Source: Eledone cirrhosa
Taxonomy: Eukaryota
Reading direction: 5' to 3'
Length of the DNA: 64,000 nt
Assembly: GCA_964016885.1 (NCBI GenBank)
Contig: OZ024756.1
Span: forward strand, 8,494,001 to 8,558,000
Shown: positions 669-55,876 of the stretch, piece by piece
Layout of the letters: the number at the start of each line of letters is the position of its first letter
How positions within the stretch are numbered: the stretch's first letter is position 1
Translations under genes and position numbers: made by a program
Notes under the pieces: model-generated
What the model was told of the DNA's origin: nothing
What the model saw: only the letters and a program-made list of their open reading frames with translations
Database searches by the model: none

Positions 669-1378
669 TGGATAAATTGGAAAAAATCAGAAAAATTGAA
701 ATATTTATATTAGTTGTAATAAAGAAGGAAGAGGGGGGATAGTATATGACAGATGGCAATTCAATTTACTGGTAAACAAGTATATAAAGGGTTTCTTTTG
801 AGAATACAATGAGTATATGGTTTATTTTATCTAAATAAGAATTTTTGGGAGTGCCTATTTTAATCTATACTTGACCAATTGAACAATGGACAGGGCTGGT
901 CGTTTGGTGTAGTAGTATTAATTATAAAGTGTCAATTAAGGAAGAGGGAGATTTCGACTGCTACTGAATAACAACAATGCTGGTAGCCTGCTGGTATATG
1001 CATTAGGGAATTGAATTAAGAAATCTCATTTTATCTATAGCAGTTTATATTAAATGATAAAGAATAGAAGAGTTGATAGAATTAAGACTAATAGAGAATG
1101 TTAATATGTATTTTGACAATCAAACGGAGATGGAGACAGACGTTCAATCCTGGTAGTATTTGTAATATGAAAATGTAGATTTTAAGCGATGGTTACAGTA
1201 TAACGATCGCTCTATTCTCTTATTTAATAAAATGTTTTTGGATTTCATAATACAAAATAATTCCATATTACATAATTTACAAAATTCCTGTCCGTGGGAA
1301 ATGGAGGGGCAGCTGCTATTATCTCCCATTTTAGGTTAAATTGTTGGTTATTTTCGCGCAGCTGCCAAGCCTTGTCTG

Positions 1379-3340: not shown

Positions 3341-3348
<8 letters not shown>

Positions 3349-3896
3349 ATACTTTGGGAGGGTCATGTAGCCAATAAGAAACACACGCACCAGTTGCTTT
3401 CACTTCAATTTATTATAATAAATTTATAAATTTAGGAATTTATAAATTTCCGGTTGGTTGGTTGGTTGGTTCCACAACCAGATTGTTGTTTATATATTGT
3501 CAAAGTTCTTTCGTCACACATTCTGTGACCTCTTCAGTGACTTGGGATTCTTTTCTTTATTTTTGTGCCTCTCCTTTGTTCTGTCCTACACCATCTTGTC
3601 GTGGGACAGAACAAAGGAGAGGCACAAAAAACAAAGAAAAGAATCCCCAGTCACTGAAGAGGTCACAGAATGTGTGACGAAAGAACTTTGACAATATATA
3701 AACAACCATCTGGTTGTGGAACCAACCAACCGGAAATTTATTAATTCCTAAATTTATAAATTTATTATAATAAATTGAAGTGAAAGCAACTGGTGCGTGT
3801 GTTTCTTATTGGCAACATGACCCTCCCAAAGTATAACAATATCGGTTTCAACACACGTTTTCAGATAAAGAATCTTGCTAAACAAATTCAGAAACG

Positions 3897-3900
<4 letters not shown>
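3341..3900. mobile_element. Palindromic HHR mini element (PLE pLTR fold-back)
   Basis: Arms 3341-3587 / 3604-3842, with the right arm extended to ~3900. (TA)n on both sides and an HHR in each arm. Confidence 0.85.
3650..3692 (+). ncRNA. Minimal type I hammerhead ribozyme (mirror copy 3499-3541, minus)
   Basis: guca-CUGAAGA-g-gucaca/ugugac-GAAA-gaac-UU-ugac. Cleavage triplet CUU. Confidence 0.75.
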
Positions 3901-3943
<43 letters not shown>

Positions 3944-4127
3944 GATAAATCTACCAAGAGTTTACGGTAGTGTCCAATCCGTATGAAGAACTCAATGTAT
4001 TCCGGATATCATGGAAAGAAGAGATGCAATGAAAATCCACTTTCGGTGAAAGACAAACGGTATACAGAGTCAAGATAAAATATTAAACAAATAATGAATA
4101 AACAATTCCTTATATTAAACAAAAAAA

Positions 4128-4282
4128 TTCATTATTTAACGATCGTTTCTAGGGTATATATGTGTTATAATTGGTATGCATATTCAACAGATCTATGTAC
4201 AAAATTATACAAAATTATACAAATTATCAAGATTAAATATACATACCTAACACATATATACGCCGTCTTCAGAAATAATGAA
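4128..4282 (-). ncRNA. Type I hammerhead ribozyme of the PLE pLTR (left arm)
   Basis: Reverse complement of 16672-16826. Confidence 0.85.
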
Positions 4283-5108
4283 GTATATTTATTGATAATA
4301 ACAACAATTCAAAATATCAGTTCAAAATTGACCAATGAAAACACAAAGGGTTAAAAGCAGTTCGGTGTGTGTATATACATGTAAAATCCTTACACATATT
4401 TTACAAAAATGTGTGTATAATTTGTATACGCATACTAAAAAGATGGATGCAAACACAAAATTTCAAGGTTAATATCTCTGTAAGCTTAATGCGCTGATAA
4501 GATGCGCATTGATACTTATGGAGTCAAGCATATAAATATATTTTTTCATACTCACACATATCAGTATAATCACACATACATGCGCGTATATGCATAAATA
4601 TACACATAACCACGAACATACAAACACACACACTCCCCCACTCACATTTATATATGTGGATATAAAATCATAAGCACATAGAAATTAAATCACTCACATA
4701 AAACACTGGCACACACATTTCAAGATCAAGATACAGAAATTAGGTGGGAGGGGGGGGAGGGGTCAGTATTCAATTGTCTGAGCAGACTGCCTAATATAAA
4801 TGTATCTATAAATTAAGAAAAATAAAAAAAAATAAAACAATAAAATATAATAACTATAATATAATATATATACACATACAGATATATAAACACACATACA
4901 TACATGTACGCACACATAGAGATATTTACGCATACACACATACACACATACATATACAGTCATACACACACATACACTTACACGAACATACACATACACA
5001 TATAAAAAGATATATATATACACACACACACACGCGCAACACATACACACATACACATATATATAAAAAAAATAGATAATAAAGATATATATCCACATAT
5101 ATATACAT

Positions 5109-5159
<51 letters not shown>

Positions 5160-5250
5160 CATATACACATACATACACATACATCTAAATATACATACAC
5201 ATACATACACACATACATGTACATACATGTACATACATATACGCACATCG

Positions 5251-5300
<50 letters not shown>

Positions 5301-5643
5301 TCACATAGACATATAGATACATACACACACAACTTACATACACACGTATATATATATATATATATAGATGTACCTTCATACATAGAATTAGATATATAAT
5401 CATACATACATATGCACCTACTTATACTCATATATATAAATACATACGCTTCCATAAATGTGTATATACATAAAAAACAATACAACCTCACCAAACTCAG
5501 ACATACAAATAAAGATAATAATAAAAAATAATAATAAAAAGGCATATGTATATACATACACACACGCATTAATAGATATATATATATATATATACACATA
5601 CATACACATATATATATACATACACACACACATATACACACAC

Positions 5644-5684
<41 letters not shown>

Positions 5685-5690
5685 TAGACT

Positions 5691-5727
<37 letters not shown>

Positions 5728-6168
5728 ATATATATCCACACACACATACCACCATAAAAACACATACAAACACCCACATGTATATATATATATATATATA
5801 TATCCATATACACACACGTACATATATATACATACATATACATACATATATATATATACACACACACATAAAAAACAGACATGCACATATATATATATAT
5901 ATATATATTTTATTACTCTTATATATACACATATTATATATACATACACAACCTCACTTATACACATATACACATAAGTTATATTATAATAATAAAGAAT
6001 AATATACATATATATATATACATATACATATATATATATATATATATATACATACATACATACACATACATACATACACATAAATATATACATACATAAA
6101 TACACACATACTAATAAAGACATATATTCACACATAGACACCTATATATATATATATATATATATATC

Positions 6169-6219
<51 letters not shown>

Positions 6220-7359
6220 ACACACACACACACACACAGACACACATACACACTCACATATATATATATATATATGTGTATGTGTGTGTGCGCACATACA
6301 CATATATACACACACACATACAAACACACACAAACACATACATATGCATACGTGCACACACACACACATATATCACATAGATACGAAGATAAACATATAA
6401 ATAGAGAGACATACATATATATACACAACACACATACACATACATACATACACGCATATACATATACATACATATATACACATATATATATTCATATATA
6501 TACAAGCATACACATACATACACATATATACACATACATACACATATACATACAACACATTCACATATACACACATATATAATGCATATATATACATATA
6601 TATACATACATATGTATGTACAATCATATATACACACACAATCTTACATTCATATTTGCATGCTCATATATGTATTTTTATATTTAGATATAAATACCCA
6701 AACCTATATAGACACCTACCTACATATATATTCATACATAGATGCTTACAAATACAGATGATAATAGTATGGGGGAAAGGGGGGGTTTGGAGAAGGGGAT
6801 CAAAGTAAATATATGTTTCAAGAAACATATAATATTTTCCGTATCTTAATTCAATGTATGTTCTTACATATTTTCAGTGCTAGGAAATACGAAATCTATG
6901 CATCTCAAAATAAATAAGTATACCATTAATCATATGTTAACTAAACCAAAGATAGCCAACATATTGATTTCTAAGGTGTAAATTAGTTAGGTTTATAATA
7001 TTTGAAGCAGAATTTTGAAGTCAAACAGTAGTAGATTATTAATTACAGTATAACTAAATTAAAGTTAATAACGTTATGGTATCAATATTAGGAGATGAAT
7101 TTAGTAATAGGGAAAAGAAACCCAAATAAAAATAAAATAAAGTATTACATCGGTAGTAGCATATAAATTATATGTTAACTAAATTAAAAATTATATATTT
7201 ATTTCAATAGTATACGTTAATTAGTATATGTTAATTAGGTATACAATACATAAAGCAGATATTGTATTTCATCAATAGCATAATATAATTATATGCAAAT
7301 AGAAATCAAAATTAATACGCATACATATACATATACCTACAACACATATACATACATAT

Positions 7360-7400
<41 letters not shown>

Positions 7401-7940
7401 CACATATACACATACATACATACATACAGATACACATACACAACACACACATATACATACACATATACATATACATATCTTTTTCAAAAAATTGCACAGA
7501 ATATATTAACTAGGTATATATCCAAAACACATCTCATTCTATGATTACATGACATTCTGCAATTCGTCTGTATAAGGATACTAATTTTAAGCAAATTAAA
7601 ATTAAAATTTTTAGGTTGATTAAAACTAAAACCAAATAATAAATATATTTCCAAAATGTATATTAATTATGTCTATAATACTAAAAATTATTTCTCCGTC
7701 ATTGGAAACATGATATTATTTTGCTATATTTTATCTGTAAAAGAATTATAATAAAATAAAAGGTTTAAATAAATTAAAATTAATCTATAAATTAAATTAC
7801 TAAGTATATATTAGTAATATTTAAAGGTTTTTCACAATTTATGATTACATAATATTTTCTCATCTGTAATAAAATATTAATTAAATTAAATTTATAGGTT
7901 AACTAACATTTAAATTAAATTAATTTCTAGAATAATGTTA

Positions 7941-10382
7941 TTAATTAGGTTTATAATATTTAAATGTTTTTTTTAGTTTATGATTACACGATATAATTAA
8001 TTCCTGTCGTTTATTTAATAAGATATCCTTAGACTTCATTATTTCAAATAGTTCTTGGGAACATAATCTACATTCTTTTCTATTATTTTGATAAGGGGTG
8101 GCTCTTTTGAGCACACTCCAGGTCAAATCATATTTTATATTCTTATTTTTATAACTATTGATTTTTTCTGCTAGAGATGTTGTATTAGCCAGTGCGGCAT
8201 TTTTAAAACTATGCTTGTGGGTATTAAACCTTGTCTTAAAATTGTTAGAGGTAGCTCCTATATATGAGCAAATAGAATCTTTAGTTTTAACATTACATTT
8301 ATAGACTATGTTGTTAACAAGACAATTCCCTTTTAATGGGCAGTTTGTTTTGTTTCTACAGTTACATCCTTTCGTTAATTCTGTATTTGAGGAGATATTA
8401 TTGTTAATTTGATGTACTGGTGGTATACTTATGGTTTTCTTACATTTATATGCATTATATGCACTTATATTTTGTTTTATGTTATTTGTTGTAGAGTATG
8501 AGAATTTAACTGTAGACCTATTTAAGATTTGATGGTATTTGTGGTTTGGCGGGAAGTTTTTCTCAAGGATATAAAAAAATTTTTTAGCAATATTATCCTT
8601 AACTTGTAAATTAAAAGGAGCATTATACCAAGTAACTCGTCTATTACGGTTTCTATGTTGTTTATTATTTTTATTATTTTTATAGGTTGTATCATGATTT
8701 TTACTAGGAGGATTAATGTTAATGATCTCACCACAACTATTTTTAGTTATATTTGTAGATTTAGGTGTTTTATCTTTTTTATTAGGAGTTTTATTATTAA
8801 TATTTATTATAGTTGTATGATGAGTAGTTTTTTGAGGGTTACTATACTTTATATTAGAAGATTTAGTATTTTGGGGTATATTGTGGGTGGCATTTAGGTG
8901 TGTACTTTTCATTTGGTGTTTGTTGGTAATATTATGCTGTATGCTTTCAGTATTTTTAGTAGAAGGTATATACTCTAATCTATTTTTGTGGCCACTTCTA
9001 TCTAGAGCTTCATTATAAAAGGTCGCATTTTTATCAAATACATCTTGGTTAGAAGAAAGGTTAGAAATTCTAAGTGATATATTATATGCAAGGTTTTTAA
9101 GGATAGATTTAGGGTGATTAGATTGTGAGTGTATGTAATGTAAGTTTTGGTTAGGTTTATGGTAAGGTTGGTATATACCCGTAGCTAAATCTAAAGTTAT
9201 ATCTAGGAAATTTACTACTTTACTTGTTTTTTCAAAAGTAATATTAAGATTATAATAGTCTTTAAGGAAAGTTCTAATATGTTTTTTGTTTTTTTCGATT
9301 TCTGAAAGGCTAAGGTTGTTAGAAAGAAGAAGACAGTCATCACGATATAAACCACCTTTGAGGTGGGGAAAAGAGGCATTTATGTTGAAAAGGAGAAAGA
9401 GGCCCACAAGATCAGTAATTTGGGCGGAATCGCTTGAACCCATAGTAATATCAAAAAGATTACTGTATGTGTTTCTGGTCCAGTATTCATTCTGAAATTC
9501 AATAAGTGTTAGTCTAGCATGTGTAATAATGTTAATGTCATCCGAAGTTAAATTAGATCTATTTTTAGCAAATATTAATGCTTTGTTCAGGAGTATAGGT
9601 GATATAGAAGAATAGTAATTATCTATATCAAATTGTAGGAAAGAAGCAGAAGATTTACACCTAATATTTTTAAACCAGTTAATTACCTGGGAGGTGTTTT
9701 CCCAGAGTGGTAAAATAACGTGTTTTCTTATTTGTGGGATGACTCTATCTAAAATTTTTTTGCTAATTATTCCAATATCTGATTTGGAGGGACATATAAG
9801 TCTAATAGAAGGATTAGAGTTAAAGTTAGATTTGTGATCTTTCAGGTTGAAGTGTGGTCTTTTCAATGCCAAAGGTTCAGTTCTATCTTCAATGTTTAGT
9901 TTTTTTACTATGTTGTGTGTTTTGTTGTTGATGTTGGTGAGTGACACATTATTAGATTTTTTATAATTTTTTCTGAGTTCTTTATATATGAACTCATTAT
10001 AATGTTCAATATCCATATGATACAAGTTACCAGTTTTGTCCGAGTGGACATGGATTTTTTTAGACTTTTTTAGGTCCAATAGGGTAGAATCAAGGTCCTT
10101 TTGAAAGACGGATTTATACTTTTTAAATTTGAGGTGTTTAATTAAATTAAAAAGGTCTTTCTCGAAGTCTTCAAGTAAAAAGTTGTGTGGTGGATTCTTG
10201 TAAGTATTGAAATCATACATATATTTCCGATCTGCTTTTTTAGATTTCCTATCGAAGTGGTAGGCTCTCCATCTAACCCTTCTGATAAAATTATTAGTTT
10301 TCTGAATCATAAGGAGTAAGAAGTCGTCCTTAGAAGGTATTGGTATGTTTTTTAAGGAGGTTCCTAAATATTGTTTTTCCAT
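7941..10382 (-). CDS. PLE polyprotein: reverse transcriptase + GIY-YIG endonuclease, 813 aa, uninterrupted
   Basis: First ATG at 10382 (MEKQYLGTSLKNIPIP). RT motifs SDKT, FDIDNYY, MGS and YRDD. Linker WYNAPF, then CNC-x5-CPLKGNC, IVY...YIG-x-T-x3-K-x-R-x3-H and C-terminal CxxC...LLN...CxH. The KNIPIP/RxRW/DKT motifs resemble the Naiad clade. Confidence 0.95.
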   Translation of the reverse strand: MEKQYLGTSLKNIPIPSKDDFLLLMIQKTNNFIRRVRWRAYHFDRKSKKADRKYMYDFNTYKNPPHNFLLEDFEKDLFNLIKHLKFKKYKSVFQKDLDSTLLDLKKSKKIHVHSDKTGNLYHMDIEHYNEFIYKELRKNYKKSNNVSLTNINNKTHNIVKKLNIEDRTEPLALKRPHFNLKDHKSNFNSNPSIRLICPSKSDIGIISKKILDRVIPQIRKHVILPLWENTSQVINWFKNIRCKSSASFLQFDIDNYYSSISPILLNKALIFAKNRSNLTSDDINIITHARLTLIEFQNEYWTRNTYSNLFDITMGSSDSAQITDLVGLFLLFNINASFPHLKGGLYRDDCLLLSNNLSLSEIEKNKKHIRTFLKDYYNLNITFEKTSKVVNFLDITLDLATGIYQPYHKPNQNLHYIHSQSNHPKSILKNLAYNISLRISNLSSNQDVFDKNATFYNEALDRSGHKNRLEYIPSTKNTESIQHNITNKHQMKSTHLNATHNIPQNTKSSNIKYSNPQKTTHHTTIININNKTPNKKDKTPKSTNITKNSCGEIININPPSKNHDTTYKNNKNNKQHRNRNRRVTWYNAPFNLQVKDNIAKKFFYILEKNFPPNHKYHQILNRSTVKFSYSTTNNIKQNISAYNAYKCKKTISIPPVHQINNNISSNTELTKGCNCRNKTNCPLKGNCLVNNIVYKCNVKTKDSICSYIGATSNNFKTRFNTHKHSFKNAALANTTSLAEKINSYKNKNIKYDLTWSVLKRATPYQNNRKECRLCSQELFEIMKSKDILLNKRQELIISCNHKLKKTFKYYKPN

Positions 10383-10809
10383 TGTGATATGGATGATGGA
10401 CAATTGAAAGAGCTCAACTAAATGTATATGGGTTTACAAAATCATACATATATATATGTTTATACATAAATATAAAATTAATACACACATACAGTACAAA
10501 AATACGAATATTTCCGTGAAAATAGGAGCAAAATTATGTAGATAAATCTACCAAGAGTTTACGGTAGTGTCCAATCCGTATGAAGAACTCAATGTATTCC
10601 GGATATCATGGAAAGAAGAGATGCAATGAAAATCCACTTTCGGTGAAAGACAAACGGTATACAGAGTCAAGATAAAATATTAAACAAATAATGAATAAAC
10701 AATTCCTTATATTAAACAAAAAAATTCATTATTTAACGATCGTTTCTAGGGTATATATGTGTTATAATTGGTATGCATATTCAACAGATCTATGTACAAA
10801 ATTATACAA

Positions 10810-13012
10810 AATTAAACACCTCAAATTTAAAAAGTATAAATCCGTCTTTCAAAAGGACCTTGATTCTACCCTATTGGACCTAAAAAAGTCTAAAAAAATC
10901 CATGTCCACTCGGACAAAACTGGTAACTTGTATCATATGGATATTGAACATTATAATGAGTTCATATATAAAGAACTCAGAAAAAATTATAAAAAATCTA
11001 ATAATGTGTCACTCACCAACATCAACAACAAAACACACAACATAGTAAAAAAACTAAACATTGAAGATAGAACTGAACCTTTGGCATTGAAAAGACCACA
11101 CTTCAACCTGAAAGATCACAAATCTAACTTTAACTCTAATCCTTCTATTAGACTTATATGTCCCTCCAAATCAGATATTGGAATAATTAGCAAAAAAATT
11201 TTAGATAGAGTCATCCCACAAATAAGAAAACACGTTATTTTACCACTCTGGGAAAACACCTCCCAGGTAATTAACTGGTTTAAAAATATTAGGTGTAAAT
11301 CTTCTGCTTCTTTCCTACAATTTGATATAGATAATTACTATTCTTCTATATCACCTATACTCCTGAACAAAGCATTAATATTTGCTAAAAATAGATCTAA
11401 TTTAACTTCGGATGACATTAACATTATTACACATGCTAGACTAACACTTATTGAATTTCAGAATGAATACTGGACCAGAAACACATACAGTAATCTTTTT
11501 GATATTACTATGGGTTCAAGCGATTCCGCCCAAATTACTGATCTTGTGGGCCTCTTTCTCCTTTTCAACATAAATGCCTCTTTTCCCCACCTCAAAGGTG
11601 GTTTATATCGTGATGACTGTCTTCTTCTTTCTAACAACCTTAGCCTTTCAGAAATCGAAAAAAACAAAAAACATATTAGAACTTTCCTTAAAGACTATTA
11701 TAATCTTAATATTACTTTTGAAAAAACAAGTAAAGTAGTAAATTTCCTAGATATAACTTTAGATTTAGCTACGGGTATATACCAACCTTACCATAAACCT
11801 AACCAAAACTTACATTACATACACTCACAATCTAATCACCCTAAATCTATCCTTAAAAACCTTGCATATAATATATCACTTAGAATTTCTAACCTTTCTT
11901 CTAACCAAGATGTATTTGATAAAAATGCGACCTTTTATAATGAAGCTCTAGATAGAAGTGGCCACAAAAATAGATTAGAGTATATACCTTCTACTAAAAA
12001 TACTGAAAGCATACAGCATAATATTACCAACAAACACCAAATGAAAAGTACACACCTAAATGCCACCCACAATATACCCCAAAATACTAAATCTTCTAAT
12101 ATAAAGTATAGTAACCCTCAAAAAACTACTCATCATACAACTATAATAAATATTAATAATAAAACTCCTAATAAAAAAGATAAAACACCTAAATCTACAA
12201 ATATAACTAAAAATAGTTGTGGTGAGATCATTAACATTAATCCTCCTAGTAAAAATCATGATACAACCTATAAAAATAATAAAAATAATAAACAACATAG
12301 AAACCGTAATAGACGAGTTACTTGGTATAATGCTCCTTTTAATTTACAAGTTAAGGATAATATTGCTAAAAAATTTTTTTATATCCTTGAGAAAAACTTC
12401 CCGCCAAACCACAAATACCATCAAATCTTAAATAGGTCTACAGTTAAATTCTCATACTCTACAACAAATAACATAAAACAAAATATAAGTGCATATAATG
12501 CATATAAATGTAAGAAAACCATAAGTATACCACCAGTACATCAAATTAACAATAATATCTCCTCAAATACAGAATTAACGAAAGGATGTAACTGTAGAAA
12601 CAAAACAAACTGCCCATTAAAAGGGAATTGTCTTGTTAACAACATAGTCTATAAATGTAATGTTAAAACTAAAGATTCTATTTGCTCATATATAGGAGCT
12701 ACCTCTAACAATTTTAAGACAAGGTTTAATACCCACAAGCATAGTTTTAAAAATGCCGCACTGGCTAATACAACATCTCTAGCAGAAAAAATCAATAGTT
12801 ATAAAAATAAGAATATAAAATATGATTTGACCTGGAGTGTGCTCAAAAGAGCCACCCCTTATCAAAATAATAGAAAAGAATGTAGATTATGTTCCCAAGA
12901 ACTATTTGAAATAATGAAGTCTAAGGATATCTTATTAAATAAACGACAGGAATTAATTATATCGTGTAATCATAAACTAAAAAAAACATTTAAATATTAT
13001 AAACCTAATTAA
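10810..13012 (+). pseudogene. 5'-truncated inverted copy of the PLE ORF
   Basis: Identical in translation to the minus-strand protein from IKHLKFKK onward. The first ~40 aa of the 773-aa track ORF come from antisense pLTR sequence. Confidence 0.9.
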
Positions 13013-13552
13013 TAACATTATTCTAGAAATTAATTTAATTTAAATGTTAGTTAACCTATAAATTTAATTTAATTAATATTTTATTACAGATGAGAAAATA
13101 TTATGTAATCATAAATTGTGAAAAACCTTTAAATATTACTAATATATACTTAGTAATTTAATTTATAGATTAATTTTAATTTATTTAAACCTTTTATTTT
13201 ATTATAATTCTTTTACAGATAAAATATAGCAAAATAATATCATGTTTCCAATGACGGAGAAATAATTTTTAGTATTATAGACATAATTAATATACATTTT
13301 GGAAATATATTTATTATTTGGTTTTAGTTTTAATCAACCTAAAAATTTTAATTTTAATTTGCTTAAAATTAGTATCCTTATACAGACGAATTGCAGAATG
13401 TCATGTAATCATAGAATGAGATGTGTTTTGGATATATACCTAGTTAATATATTCTGTGCAATTTTTTGAAAAAGATATGTATATGTATATGTGTATGTAT
13501 ATGTGTGTGTTGTGTATGTGTATCTGTATGTATGTATGTATGTGTATATGTG

Positions 13553-13593
<41 letters not shown>

Positions 13594-14733
13594 ATATGTA
13601 TGTATATGTGTTGTAGGTATATGTATATGTATGCGTATTAATTTTGATTTCTATTTGCATATAATTATATTATGCTATTGATGAAATACAATATCTGCTT
13701 TATGTATTGTATACCTAATTAACATATACTAATTAACGTATACTATTGAAATAAATATATAATTTTTAATTTAGTTAACATATAATTTATATGCTACTAC
13801 CGATGTAATACTTTATTTTATTTTTATTTGGGTTTCTTTTCCCTATTACTAAATTCATCTCCTAATATTGATACCATAACGTTATTAACTTTAATTTAGT
13901 TATACTGTAATTAATAATCTACTACTGTTTGACTTCAAAATTCTGCTTCAAATATTATAAACCTAACTAATTTACACCTTAGAAATCAATATGTTGGCTA
14001 TCTTTGGTTTAGTTAACATATGATTAATGGTATACTTATTTATTTTGAGATGCATAGATTTCGTATTTCCTAGCACTGAAAATATGTAAGAACATACATT
14101 GAATTAAGATACGGAAAATATTATATGTTTCTTGAAACATATATTTACTTTGATCCCCTTCTCCAAACCCCCCCTTTCCCCCATACTATTATCATCTGTA
14201 TTTGTAAGCATCTATGTATGAATATATATGTAGGTAGGTGTCTATATAGGTTTGGGTATTTATATCTAAATATAAAAATACATATATGAGCATGCAAATA
14301 TGAATGTAAGATTGTGTGTGTATATATGATTGTACATACATATGTATGTATATATATGTATATATATGCATTATATATGTGTGTGTATGTGAATGTGTTG
14401 TATGTATATGTGTATGTATGTGTATATATGTGTATGTATGTGTATGCTTGTATATATATGAATATATATATGTGTATATATGTATGTATATGTATATGCG
14501 TGTATGTATGTATGTGTATGTGTGTTGTGTATATATATGTATGTCTCTCTATTTATATGTTTATCTTCGTATCTATGTGATATATGTGTGTGTGTGTGCA
14601 CGTATGCATATGTATGTGTTTGTGTGTGTTTGTATGTGTGTGTGTATATATGTGTATGTGCGCACACACACATACACATATATATATATATATATGTGAG
14701 TGTGTATGTGTGTCTGTGTGTGTGTGTGTGTGT

Positions 14734-14784
<51 letters not shown>

Positions 14785-15225
14785 GATATATATATATATA
14801 TATATATATAGGTGTCTATGTGTGAATATATGTCTTTATTAGTATGTGTGTATTTATGTATGTATATATTTATGTGTATGTATGTATGTGTATGTATGTA
14901 TGTATATATATATATATATATATATGTATATGTATATATATATATGTATATTATTCTTTATTATTATAATATAACTTATGTGTATATGTGTATAAGTGAG
15001 GTTGTGTATGTATATATAATATGTGTATATATAAGAGTAATAAAATATATATATATATATATATATGTGCATGTCTGTTTTTTATGTGTGTGTGTATATA
15101 TATATATGTATGTATATGTATGTATATATATGTACGTGTGTGTATATGGATATATATATATATATATATATACATGTGGGTGTTTGTATGTGTTTTTATG
15201 GTGGTATGTGTGTGTGGATATATAT

Positions 15226-15262
<37 letters not shown>

Positions 15263-15268
15263 AGTCTA

Positions 15269-15311
<43 letters not shown>

Positions 15312-15654
15312 GTGTGTGTATATGTGTGTGTGTATGTATATATATATGTGTATGTATGTGTATATATATATATATATCTCTATTAATGCGTGTGTGTATG
15401 TATATACATATGCCTTTTTATTATTATTTTTTATTATTATCTTTATTTGTATGTCTGAGTTTGGTGAGGTTGTATTGTTTTTTATGTATATACACATTTA
15501 TGGAAGCGTATGTATTTATATATATGAGTATAAGTAGGTGCATATGTATGTATGATTATATATCTAATTCTATGTATGAAGGTACATCTATATATATATA
15601 TATATATACGTGTGTATGTAAGTTGTGTGTGTATGTATCTATATGTCTATGTGA

Positions 15655-15704
<50 letters not shown>

Positions 15705-15795
15705 CGATGTGCGTATATGTATGTACATGTATGTACATGTATGTGTGTATGTATGTGTATGTATATTTAGATGTATGTGTATGTATGTGTATATG

Positions 15796-15848
<53 letters not shown>

Positions 15849-16671
15849 ATGTATATATATGTGGATATATATCTTTATTATCTATTTTTTTATATATATG
15901 TGTATGTGTGTATGTGTTGCGCGTGTGTGTGTGTGTATATATATATCTTTTTATATGTGTATGTGTATGTTCGTGTAAGTGTATGTGTGTGTATGACTGT
16001 ATATGTATGTGTGTATGTGTGTATGCGTAAATATCTCTATGTGTGCGTACATGTATGTATGTGTGTTTATATATCTGTATGTGTATATATATTATATTAT
16101 AGTTATTATATTTTATTGTTTTATTTTTTTATTTTTCTTAATTTATAGATACATTTATATTAGGCAGTCTGCTCAGACAATTGAATACTGACCCCTCCCC
16201 CCCCTCCCACCTAATTTCTGTATCTTGATCTTGAAATGTGTGTGCCAGTGTTTTATGTGAGTGATTTAATTTCTATGTGCTTATGATTTTATATCCACAT
16301 ATATAAATGTGAGTGGGGGAGTGTGTGTGTTTGTATGTTCGTGGTTATGTGTATATTTATGCATATACGCGCATGTATGTGTGATTATACTGATATGTGT
16401 GAGTATGAAAAAATATATTTATATGCTTGACTCCATAAGTATCAATGCGCATCTTATCAGCGCATTAAGCTTACAGAGATATTAACCTTGAAATTTTGTG
16501 TTTGCATCCATCTTTTTAGTATGCGTATACAAATTATACACACATTTTTGTAAAATATGTGTAAGGATTTTACATGTATATACACACACCGAACTGCTTT
16601 TAACCCTTTGTGTTTTCATTGGTCAATTTTGAACTGATATTTTGAATTGTTGTTATTATCAATAAATATAC

Positions 16672-16826
16672 TTCATTATTTCTGAAGACGGCGTATATAT
16701 GTGTTAGGTATGTATATTTAATCTTGATAATTTGTATAATTTTGTATAATTTTGTACATAGATCTGTTGAATATGCATACCAATTATAACACATATATAC
16801 CCTAGAAACGATCGTTAAATAATGAA
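16672..16826 (+). ncRNA. Type I hammerhead ribozyme with long stem II (right arm)
   Basis: 10-bp stem I uucauuauuu/aaauaaugaa; CUGAAGA 16682-88; stem II guauauauguguua/uaacacauauauac; GAAA 16805-08; palindromic cgaucg. GUU cleavage after 16816. Confidence 0.88.
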
Positions 16827-16879
16827 TTTTTTTGTTTAATATAAGGAATTGTTTATTCATTATTTGTTTAATATTTTAT

Positions 16880-17902
<1,023 letters not shown>

Positions 17903-18417: not shown

Positions 18418-19098
<681 letters not shown>

Positions 19099-53310: not shown

Positions 53311-53485
53311 GTACTAAGATCGAGATATGGCCTAGAGATAGCAGTAATTCTCCAGTTAATATAATGTTTTTGCTGCGGGTGACTATAATATCTTGTTGAG
53401 GCTAACGGCTTTCATTTGCCGCCAGTTTCTTATCTTCTCCCATAATTTGGCAACACTAACATTGAATTATAGAACTTATATATAA

Positions 53486-55855
53486 GAAAAAGTATGACCC
53501 CGACGGCAGAGCTCAAGCTGTTTCGACAGCTATTTCTGGACTAAATTTTTAGCCTGGTAAATAAATAGCCGAACTTGTCAAGGGCTACTTCCTTATATGG
53601 GAAGATTGTAGTTGTCAAGAGGATTGGTCAAAATTTGTTGTAAACACAAATAAGTCTGCCATGGCATTTGGTGGGGAGGTAGGGGTGGCTGAACTTGCCT
53701 GTAGAACAATGAGGGCGTGAGTGGAGCCGGTTAAGCGTTGAAAGTGAAATCTATACAGCAGATTCTAAGGATAGTGTATGAAAAGTTGAAAAATTGTTCT
53801 GGAGAAAATGGAGAATAGGTAAGTCAAATGAGAGTAGGGGACAATAAAAAATAATAGAAAGAAATATAAAAAAATATATATAAAATTAGATAGTGAGAAA
53901 GGAATTTTAAAAAAACCTGGTTAAAAACATCTCCCTCCGCATATCTCGTTTGTCCGCTCATGAGCAGATATTCGACGAACATGCCCCTCATTACAACCAG
54001 GCCCTCAAACGGAGTGGCTTCCGGGAGGAAATATCCTTTTATCCAGCTTCCCTTAGCGGAACCAACAGGCGACACCGCCTCTCACGCAACGTAACGTGGT
54101 TCAATCCTCCCCACAATGCCGAGGTGGCAACACCTATCGGGAAAATCTTTTAGACTCCTCGAAAAACACTTCCCACTACAACACCGCTACCACAACATAA
54201 TCAACAAAAAACACTGTCAAACTCTCCTACAGCACCACACCTAACTTTGCACAAAACATTGTCTCCTCAAACAACAAAAAACTCAACCCCTATGGAAGAA
54301 ACAACCTAGACATCAGTGGAGAGCCGACCAGGAGGTGTAACTGCCCTGATAGATCTACGTGCCCCCCCTCAACAACAAAGGCAGAGAACGTAACGTGATC
54401 TACCAGTGCAACGTGAGGACGGACACCTCCAACAAAGCTTATATAGGATTAACCGCTTGTGACTTTATGACCCGGCTCTACCAACACCAACATACTTTCC
54501 AAAACCCGGTCCGGCGACATGCCACTACACTTTCGGGCCACATCTAGGTCCTCCAAGATAATATAACCTACAATCTCACTTGGAGCTTACTGTCCAGAGC
54601 TAACTCTTACACGGGAGGATGCCGTCCGTTTAACTTATGCTCAGAGGAAACATTACAAATGCTGTTTTCGAAGGACCAACTCCTAAACAAGAAAGACGAA
54701 CTGGTAACTGCATGCAAACAGATTGTGTAGGACTTACTTCGCCCTCAAACCCCATAACGACCCGGGTGGGTAGACAAGGGCTGATACCCCCCACTTGCCG
54801 AATAAGTTAGGGTAAACCCCAGCTTACAGAGGTAGATGTACCTCTTTTCTTTTCCTCTATGTTGTCTTCTTCCCCGTGTCCTATTACTTTTTTCCACCCC
54901 CCGATCTTCTTCCTCGTCTGCTTTTCCCCTTCCGCCTACCCCGATGCAGCCCATCGGGCCTCTAGCCTGAGTACCTCCACCCCTGTAATTTTAAGATAGA
55001 ATTGGCCGATTACGCTTTACTAACTATTTATAGCAGATGTGTTAGACCCCTGTAATTTTGTATCATTTTTGTTACTACTCCAATTCTATAATTTTTTATT
55101 TAGTATTTTCTTTTCTCAACTTATTAACCTGTAATTGTAAGATAGCATTGGCGGAATACGCTTTACTATTTATAGCAGCTGTGTTAAACCCCTGAAAAGT
55201 TTGCATTATATTTTTTCACTACCCACTTCTACAATTTCTTATTTAGTATTTTCCATTCTCAACTTATTAACCTTTTCTATAGCTTTGGCCGTACAAGCAA
55301 CACCTACTAATTATAGCAGCTGTCTCTAGACTCTACTGTTTTTTTTGTTTTTTTTGTTTTTTTTATTCATTTCTCACTATCTAATTTTATATATTTTTTT
55401 ATATTTCTTTCTATTATTTTTTATTGTCCCCCTACTCTCATTTGACTTACCTATTCTGTAACTTCCCTCCTCCATTTTCTCTAGAACAAATTTTCGACTT
55501 TTCATACACTACCCTTAGAATCTGCTGTATAGTTTTCACTTTCAACGCTCGACCGGCTCCACAGCCACCCCTACCTCCCACCAAATGCCATGACAGACTT
55601 ATTTGTGTTTACAACAAATTTTGACCAATCCTCTTGACAACTTCAATCTTCCCATATAAGGAAGTAGCCCTTGACAAGTTTGGCTATTTATTTACCAGGC
55701 TAAAAATTTTAATTTAGTCCAGAAATAGCCGTCGAAACAGCTTGAGCTCTGCCGTCGGGGTCATACTTTTTCCTATTACCCACTCTACTACCCTAAGTAT
55801 TGACTACTCTGGTGTGTTATGGTCCATCTGGTTCCTTACCACATTTCCTTCGTTA
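53486..55855 (+). mobile_element. Second PLE family: degenerate GIY-YIG region with inverted pLTR
   Basis: Remnants YNQALKRSG, VTWFNPP, CNC..CP, VIYQC..YIGLT..RLYQH and LLNK in 53936-54745. Arms 53486-53915 / 55356-55772, with TA ends. Confidence 0.88.
55661..55768 (+). ncRNA. Variant or degenerate hammerhead (core UUGACAA)
   Basis: gccc-UUGACAA-g..ggcuauuu/aaauagcc..-GAAA-cagc...gccg-UC-gggg. The left arm has the same core. Confidence 0.55.
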
Positions 55856-55876
55856 TATATATATATATATATATAT

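Follow-up and report, generated by a model that had tools for sequence, protein, structure and literature searches.

The 64,000-nt stretch of Eledone cirrhosa DNA analyzed here (the window; contig OZ024756.1, positions 8,494,001 to 8,558,000) carries a 13-kb mirror-image insertion, a Penelope-type element in two head-to-head arms whose anatomy is confirmed by self-comparison and base-level alignment. The insertion is very young, and the element is, judged by its sequence, a Hydra-clade Penelope-like retrotransposon (PLE). We posit that it arose by double target-primed reverse transcription from two internal sites, with the cDNAs joined at AATTA, and hold this much to be very probable; the fuller account, in which one recent insertion into (TA)n was primed twice at hairpin-marked sites from an uncleaved linear RNA longer than one unit, has in our judgment about an even chance of being right. 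How PLEs, the sister group of telomerase, form tandem and inverted insertions and what their hammerhead ribozymes do are posed as open questions in PMC8557442 and PMC11167929.

One unit of the element measures 6597 nt; the left arm spans 1.04 units (6877 nt) and the right arm 0.92 unit (6070 nt). Positions 3938-4217 recur at 10535-10814 with 0 mismatches and an offset of 6597, the repeat starting at 3941 (3941-4217) if the three bases common with the TA flank are excluded. Positions 10810-16879, which form the inverted arm, match the reverse complement of 4075-10143 with an identity of 99.85% over 6073 columns, and the differences, 2 substitutions and 4 small indels, all lie within microsatellite or homopolymer runs. 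The arms meet at AATTA, a 5-nt microhomology at 10810-10814; inverted joints placed at random in the non-microsatellite part reach at least five matching bases in 1.1% of 100000 trials. Each outer end has 3 bases (TAT) in common with the (TA)n that flanks the insertion on both sides, within which a target-site duplication is not resolvable, and the ends lie 196-200 nt (left) and 63 nt (right) past the hammerhead cut. An earlier sequence-only reading of the window had described this layout (a 6597-bp offset with a left arm longer than one unit, an inverted copy of about 6.07 kb, a 5-nt aatta junction at 10810-10814, and outer ends 196 and 63 nt past the hammerhead site that share a few A/T bases with the flank), and the alignment upholds it base by base. 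No further copy of the 6.6-kb family occurs elsewhere in the 64-kb window. The parts of the insertion, including the pseudo-long terminal repeat (pLTR), the untranslated regions (UTRs), and the open reading frame (ORF) for the reverse transcriptase (RT), are as follows.

3899..3940, no strand: left (TA)n target tract
3938..10814, minus: left arm of the probable Hydra-clade PLE, 1.04 units, with its 3' end facing outward at fixed family end A (3938-3941)
3938..4074, minus: one-sided tail of 134-137 nt between end sites A and B, containing hairpin h1
3987..4070, minus: hairpin h1, ACUC/GAGU stem, UU bulge, and structured loop of about 70 nt, formed in the minimum-energy fold; second copy at 10584-10667
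4128..4282, minus: type I hammerhead, stem I 4282-4273/4137-4128, CUGAAGA 4272-4266, 116-nt stem II region, palindromic stem III, predicted cut 4138/4137
4283..7940, minus: 3' UTR of 3658 nt, 24% GC, with TA/CA microsatellite blocks at about 4860-6640 and 7320-7480
7941..10382, minus: intact 813-aa ORF with RT (YRDD at 346), CxCX5C linker, and C-terminal GIY-YIG endonuclease
8658..8957, minus: in-frame insert of about 100 codons, rich in N, K, and T, between thumb and linker
10409..10529, minus: hairpin h2, GCUC-CUA/UAG-UU-GAGC with a structured loop of about 105 nt, present only in the inner 5' UTR
10535..10814, minus: inner partial pLTR, broken off within the stem II loop; it retains both end sites (A and B), h1, the cut site, and the hammerhead's 3' half
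10810..10814, no strand: head-to-head junction, AATTA microhomology
10810..16879, plus: right arm of 0.92 unit, with a 5' truncation at ORF codon 81 and its 3' end facing outward at fixed family end B
16672..16826, plus: second complete hammerhead, predicted cut after 16816
16877..16986, no strand: right (TA)n tract with a TAAAT interruption every 30-32 bp

Public reads place the ends of the family exactly at both outer ends of the locus. At end A, 651 of 9870 reads of run X15 pass from 10535, the equivalent of the outer end, into (TA)n; at end B, 417 of 6921 reads of X16 and 343 of 6355 of X17 pass from 4075 into (TA)n, a transition absent from the six matches listed for X15. At many sites these reads depart from the window sequence, so that they likely come from other individuals. 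Since most family reads diverge from the window by several percent, as against the 99.85% identity between the arms, both arms must derive from one source. The sequence-only reading had proposed looking for circular permutation among the ends of other copies; the fixed ends A and B refute random permutation of this kind. Its claim that both target strands were primed is, in contrast, strengthened, because the two outer ends are the two fixed ends of the family in independent reads and because the PLE Poseidon extends both strands in vitro (PMC11167929). Other read or loose ends in X15-X17 (4104, 4172, 4309, 4326, 8503, and 10701) fall on AATT or on the variant CATG and were set aside as restriction-library artefacts. 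Many reads depart from the reference at 4377-4384 into other sequences, which suggests that subfamilies share the hammerhead and tail and differ in their 3' UTRs.

Each end site is followed by a predicted bulged hairpin in the RNA: h1 begins 4 nt after site B and h2 begins 5 nt after site A, both between the hammerhead and the start codon. This pair of end-marking hairpins had escaped the sequence-only reading. The ACUC/GAGU stem of h1 shows a compensatory G-C to A-U change, and the forced form of h2 lies 0.3 kcal/mol above the minimum fold. Relatives were drawn from 78 Hydra-type metagenome loci (the best 80 of 373 relatives having been kept). Of the 29 loci in which the region between cut and ATG is contiguous, 24 have two GCUC...GAGC bulged hairpins and 5 have one, compared with 0/29 on the opposite strand and 0/580 in shuffles; the pattern was devised after these 29 regions had been viewed, and some of the loci belong to one family. 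Among the readable 3' ends of relatives, 15 of 18 lie within -8..+6 nt of a hairpin. Because h2 is outside the copied 3' end, it would have to act on the RNA if it sets end A. A twin-hairpin start signal was not found in print (literature from 2021, with few subscription papers covered), and a search for twin priming together with Penelope returned unrelated work only.

Some further features of these sites stand apart. The 11-mer TTTCACNGAAA, which follows both ends, was rejected as the start signal: it had been chosen post hoc, 45 of 4000 random window pairs match as well, and it lies inside the loops of the actual hairpins. Its presence in both enlarged loops, at 4041-4051, 10511-10521, and 10638-10648 on the minus strand, has a chance of about 1%, and it may serve as an additional binding site or be a relic of one hairpin having been copied from the other. 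The 5' ends of some relatives are also at hairpin-marked sites, often beside TA (L011:3168, L023:965, L031:981, and L033:286), and L031 resembles an exact monomer, running from first site to first site.

In the sequence of events that we favor, the element's endonuclease would nick both strands of (TA)n, as the target preference of the Hydra clade and the biochemistry of Poseidon suggest. The protein would bind h1 and h2 and begin copying 4-5 nt upstream of each, with about three bases paired with the DNA end, in keeping with the observed end positions and hairpins. The top strand would prime at site A and the bottom strand at site B, giving the observed 6877 nt and 6070 nt of the same sequence, and such overlapping copying would depend on strand displacement unless the same source supplied a second RNA. 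The two cDNA 3' ends would then presumably anneal at the observed AATTA microhomology, each templating the second strand of the other. The template would likely be a read-through transcript of a tandem source copy with its hammerhead uncut.

A custom scan for hammerheads places one core in each arm, at 4272(-) and 16682(+), with a stem I of 10 bp; the whole window yields 6 distinct cores, whereas 10 shuffles yield 0-1 apiece. The hammerhead is the minimum-energy fold (z -6.5), and cleavage is predicted. Complete hammerheads at the locus number two, not three, as the inner repeat 10535-10814 ends in the stem II loop without the CUGAAGA half. At the stem II pair 4261/4154, reads carry two frequent, unphased variants that change G-C to A-U, and they vary between U and A at the cleavage base N17. 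Rfam reports no hammerhead in the element at its gathering score, nor at E<=10 among the best 150 of 220 matches, which are mostly chance miRNA-type hits on microsatellites or hairpins. A CUGUUGA near 4190 was dropped as a core, having no hammerhead fold and no conservation in reads.

What the template looked like at the cut is the less certain part of the account. Copying crossed the cut site three times without a scar. In genomic sequence, a ligated cut is indistinguishable from an uncut one. Reads show no depth drop at the cut and, among the matches listed, no indel or pile-up. None of nine resolved 5' ends of relatives is at the cut (+93, +91, +32, +32, +123, -41, -43, -202, and -89, with -80 here); these are 9 of 20 loci, the others having been dropped (5 without a match, 1 at a contig start, and 5 with cross-family matches only), and one +32 comes from an 86% match. 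Two relatives start 9-11 nt upstream of the hammerhead core, which supports a linear RNA. Just upstream of the hammerhead, between 4276 and 4326, summed contig depth (X1) drops from 244k to 36k; six reads and two contigs have fold-back joints at 4279/4280, and the left arm ends inside this depth boundary. In Anolis, Poseidon_Ac cuts and extends both strands, uses two internal start sites, and works on unprocessed RNA, with hammerhead mutants having no effect and no RNA-seq reads ending at its hammerhead cut (PMC11167929).

These observations sustain the view of the sequence-only reading that a cleaved linear monomer is a poor template, given the three unscarred crossings and the absence of relative 5' ends at the cut. 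Its further proposal, that the template was a multimer or a circle, holds insofar as the template crossed the cut; that the geometry points specially to a circle is not supported, since the ends are fixed and an uncleaved RNA of about 1.06 units, produced by read-through, would account for the geometry. A plain pLTR-ORF-pLTR transcript is weakened as a sufficient source, because h2 lies beyond end A, so that the source must be longer or be primed via a (UA)n tail.

Several points weigh against an uncleaved linear template primed at paired hairpins. Since h2 is missing from the 3' end that each insertion carries, a linear source has to comprise at least two tandem units or be primed via a read-through (UA)n tail. 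Both pLTR copies carry variants that are rare in the family (e.g., 4054, 4127, and 4154), which calls for a regenerating step such as a circle would supply. Three of the 18 relative 3' ends (L007, L062, and L065) lie away from a hairpin. The loose ends considered are the top ones, with 575 and 501 more behind them, where a pile-up at the cut could lie. Summed contig depth is no copy number, and its step may reflect subfamilies that are shorter or have diverged (4377 and 4384 are further points of divergence among reads). Finally, no read or contig among the matches listed spans the inner junction.

The chief rival keeps the double priming at h1 and h2 and replaces the template by a circle of 6597 nt, the product of cleavage by the hammerhead followed by ligation, around which the left arm would have run 1.04 rounds; we consider it rather unlikely. 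An intact hammerhead with its 10-bp stem I and covarying stem II would be accounted for, as would a cut site without a scar and pLTR copies that are identical down to rare variants, and, with the start signals downstream of the cut, a circle would restore the signal lost at each insertion. The model, which is also the circle of the sequence-only reading, has been proposed for PLEs (PMC4209133), and small retrozyme circles have been shown in animals (PMC7229834). Yet a circle has no end near 4280-4310, the site of the depth drop and fold-back joints, the left arm extends only 280 nt beyond one unit, cleavage by animal PLE hammerheads is weak (PMC4209133), and Poseidon, as described above, works on uncleaved RNA with no RNA-seq ends at the cut. 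The broader picture of an autonomous 6.6-kb retrotransposon that replicates via a ribozyme-made RNA circle, with a telomerase-like enzyme gripping twin hairpins just past the ligation point and copying that circle simultaneously from the two break ends, is doubtful in our estimation; were the circle real, it would offer a single account of the hammerhead, identical pLTRs, tail, and head-to-head arms of PLEs. A linear route to identical pLTRs, requiring no ligation, is a cleaved monomer on which the RT starts in the 5' part and jumps end to end at the cut to the 3' end of either the same RNA or a different one. Such jumps are known for R2 and group II intron RTs, but three identical, unscarred crossings, no indel at the cut among the matches listed, and 0/9 relative 5' ends there make this quite improbable.

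The head-to-head arrangement could also stem from single priming at A, after which the cDNA folds back at AATTA/TAATT and serves as its own template, with cutting or resolution at B. This would yield an identical junction sequence, has been proposed for inverted PLE junctions (PMC3846280), and accords with the attribution of the tail to endonuclease resolution (PMC8557442) and with a near-perfect palindrome with a 3-nt centre at 28932-29386 in the window. Against it, the hairpin at B matches that at A in kind and offset, and the hairpin of A is absent from the cDNA and could act only as RNA; a 5-bp stem closing a 666-nt loop is weak, and in vitro Poseidon uses each of its two start sites on either strand. 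We therefore regard self-priming as improbable. An assembly or library chimera, from a fold-back read or a collapsed repeat, would fit the lack of a spanning read and the proneness of long palindromes to error in assemblies. Such an artefact would, however, continue into the left tail and flank, whereas the right arm stops exactly at the second of the family's fixed ends, beyond which lies a different flank; six differences separate the arms, and at least three smaller head-to-head hammerhead insertions share the window. With the fixed ends likewise arguing against it, a chimera is very unlikely.

The 813-aa ORF is intact, its copy in the right arm lacking codons 1-80, and the AlphaFold model is confident (pLDDT 85.6), with telomerase RTs as the top fold matches. 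Motifs comprise RWR at 37, DKT at 115, YRDD at 346, CNCRNKTNC at 673, VY...YIG at 692-709, CRLC at 771, and CNH at 799; a pattern search of the protein found no CCHH motif. Pfam and PDB sequence searches gave no match, and the 116 database proteins that match the ORF, mostly at 31-48% identity, are nearly all without a name. By eye, the protein matches the printed Hydra-1_Obim, Ajap, and Crog proteins. Residues 476-575, the insert rich in N, K, and T, are almost missing from 60 aligned homologues and disordered in the model. Among the 30 ORF variants listed for the reads, with 335 further rows behind them, 19 are synonymous, which fits a lineage under selection.

Assignment to the Hydra clade draws on a single RT ORF with C-terminal GIY-YIG, RW[K/R], DKT, CxCX5C, and CxxC/CxH around conserved E and N, no CCHH, a pLTR hammerhead, and insertion into (TA)n; the 6597-nt unit exceeds the length of under 3 kb generally given for the clade, a trait that is descriptive rather than diagnostic. 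Naiad/Chlamys elements are ruled out, since an N-terminal endonuclease, DKA, and a missing canonical hammerhead do not fit, and a non-LTR retrozyme, made of small non-coding tandem units, by the intact ORF and 6.6-kb unit. No relatives were found among viral contigs. The partial tandem pLTR, the inverted 5'-truncated copy at the 5' end, and the one-sided tail form the standard layout of endonuclease-bearing PLEs (PMC8557442, PMC3846280).

Insertions of this layout and the circle model (PMC4209133) have thus been published; what is unusual here is the scale, with a 6.6-kb unit, 6-kb arms, and enlarged RNA loops. Hydra-clade PLEs such as Hydra-1_Obim and Penelope-13_HM have the same C-terminal GIY-YIG, RW[K/R]/DKT/CxCX5C/CxxC/CxH motifs, hammerhead in the 3' pLTR, (TA)n target, and partial tandem with an inverted 5'-truncated copy, which measures 966 nt in Penelope-13_HM compared with 6 kb here (PMC8557442). 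The unit is 6597 nt long as against under 3.1 kb in the table of that paper and 2362-2759 nt in 10 metagenome relatives, and the hammerhead core layout is that of its File S2 with a much longer stem II. The stop-to-hammerhead distance is about 3670 nt versus a median of 156 (54-1135) in 45 of the 78 relatives, a set from which L049 and L060 were excluded for doubtful folds; the stem II region has 116 nt versus 10-25, and the hairpin loops about 70 and 105 nt versus 6-17. The insert of 100 residues rich in N, K, and T also sets the element apart, as does a tail of 134-137 nt, tails in the Hydra clade usually being 30-40 bp (PMC8557442).

Other systems match in part. Poseidon_Ac likewise has both strands cut and extended, two starts downstream of the hammerhead that bound a tail, an AT-rich target, and uncleaved RNA as substrate, but it belongs to another clade and starts in an AC-rich stem-loop inside the ORF (PMC11167929), whereas the element here starts in the 5' UTR, at two sites 137 nt apart, each before its own bulged hairpin. 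The Penelope elements of Adineta vaga have direct and inverted pLTRs, a one-sided tail, microhomology joins, in-frame N-rich inserts, and long spacers ahead of the 3' pLTR, which measure 0.9-1.5 kb in Pen1; they differ in clade and in inverted parts that are mostly pLTR-sized, and their authors favor self-priming (PMC3846280). Type I hammerheads with palindromic stem III and copies of more than one unit were described by Cervera and de la Pena in 2014 (PMC4209133) and in non-LTR retrozymes (PMC7229834; bioRxiv 10.64898/2026.07.22.740005). Circles have been shown for non-coding retrozymes of 170-400 nt (PMC7229834; bioRxiv 10.64898/2026.07.22.740005), whereas the element here is coding, and the available text of these two sources and of PMC4209133 contains no demonstration of a circle from an autonomous multi-kb PLE.

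The locus offers a very young ORF, still intact, and two candidate RNA start signals that match both insertion ends in position, making internal initiation, double priming, and the choice between circular and linear templates directly testable in vitro, in a clade for which the literature covered offers no in vitro assay. In L1 twin priming, both target strands prime cDNA and the pieces are joined by microhomology, inverting segments of a single RNA that do not overlap; here, one and the same 6 kb was copied into both arms, starting from two fixed sites. The persistence of the signals through a 5- to 10-fold expansion of the loops suggests that the enzyme reads a short bulged stem, which would then be a compact, portable cis-signal for retrotransposon-based gene insertion. 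As a test system, the locus is clean both for double priming at paired hairpins and for the circle model.

Related sequences surround the insertion. Adjoining its left side, 3341-3898 holds short head-to-head hammerhead arms of another family (CUGAAGA at 3537- and 3654+) with a 56-nt one-sided tail. In the right (TA)n tract, TAAAT is found at 16891, 16923, 16955, and 16985 (period 32, 32, 30); the last is the end of the neighboring element, and the others may be slippage copies or marks of repeated abortive priming. That neighbor, 16987-17902, consists of about 1.47 direct copies of a 631-nt unit, apparently without an ORF. It carries a canonical type I hammerhead whose stem III is long (core 17316-); here, too, the upstream copy breaks off within the hammerhead, and the element is likely a non-autonomous PLE or a retrozyme. 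Two more head-to-head hammerhead insertions lie at 18714-19098, with a long stem II loop and one arm truncated within it, and at 28932-29481, which contains the near-perfect palindrome with the 3-nt centre and has a 95-nt one-sided tail. An older Hydra-type fragment at 53482-55876 has an endonuclease region (54128-54715) 31% identical to the 813-aa protein, an inverted end at 85% identity, and a tail ending in (TA)n, and a C-terminal fragment at 1159-1281 (-) is 68% identical to the protein. A lone hammerhead at 44911-44959 (-) stands just before a TA-rich tract. Among the metagenome relatives, L018 and L073 each carry a minus-strand piece of a Hydra ORF head to head with a plus-strand copy.

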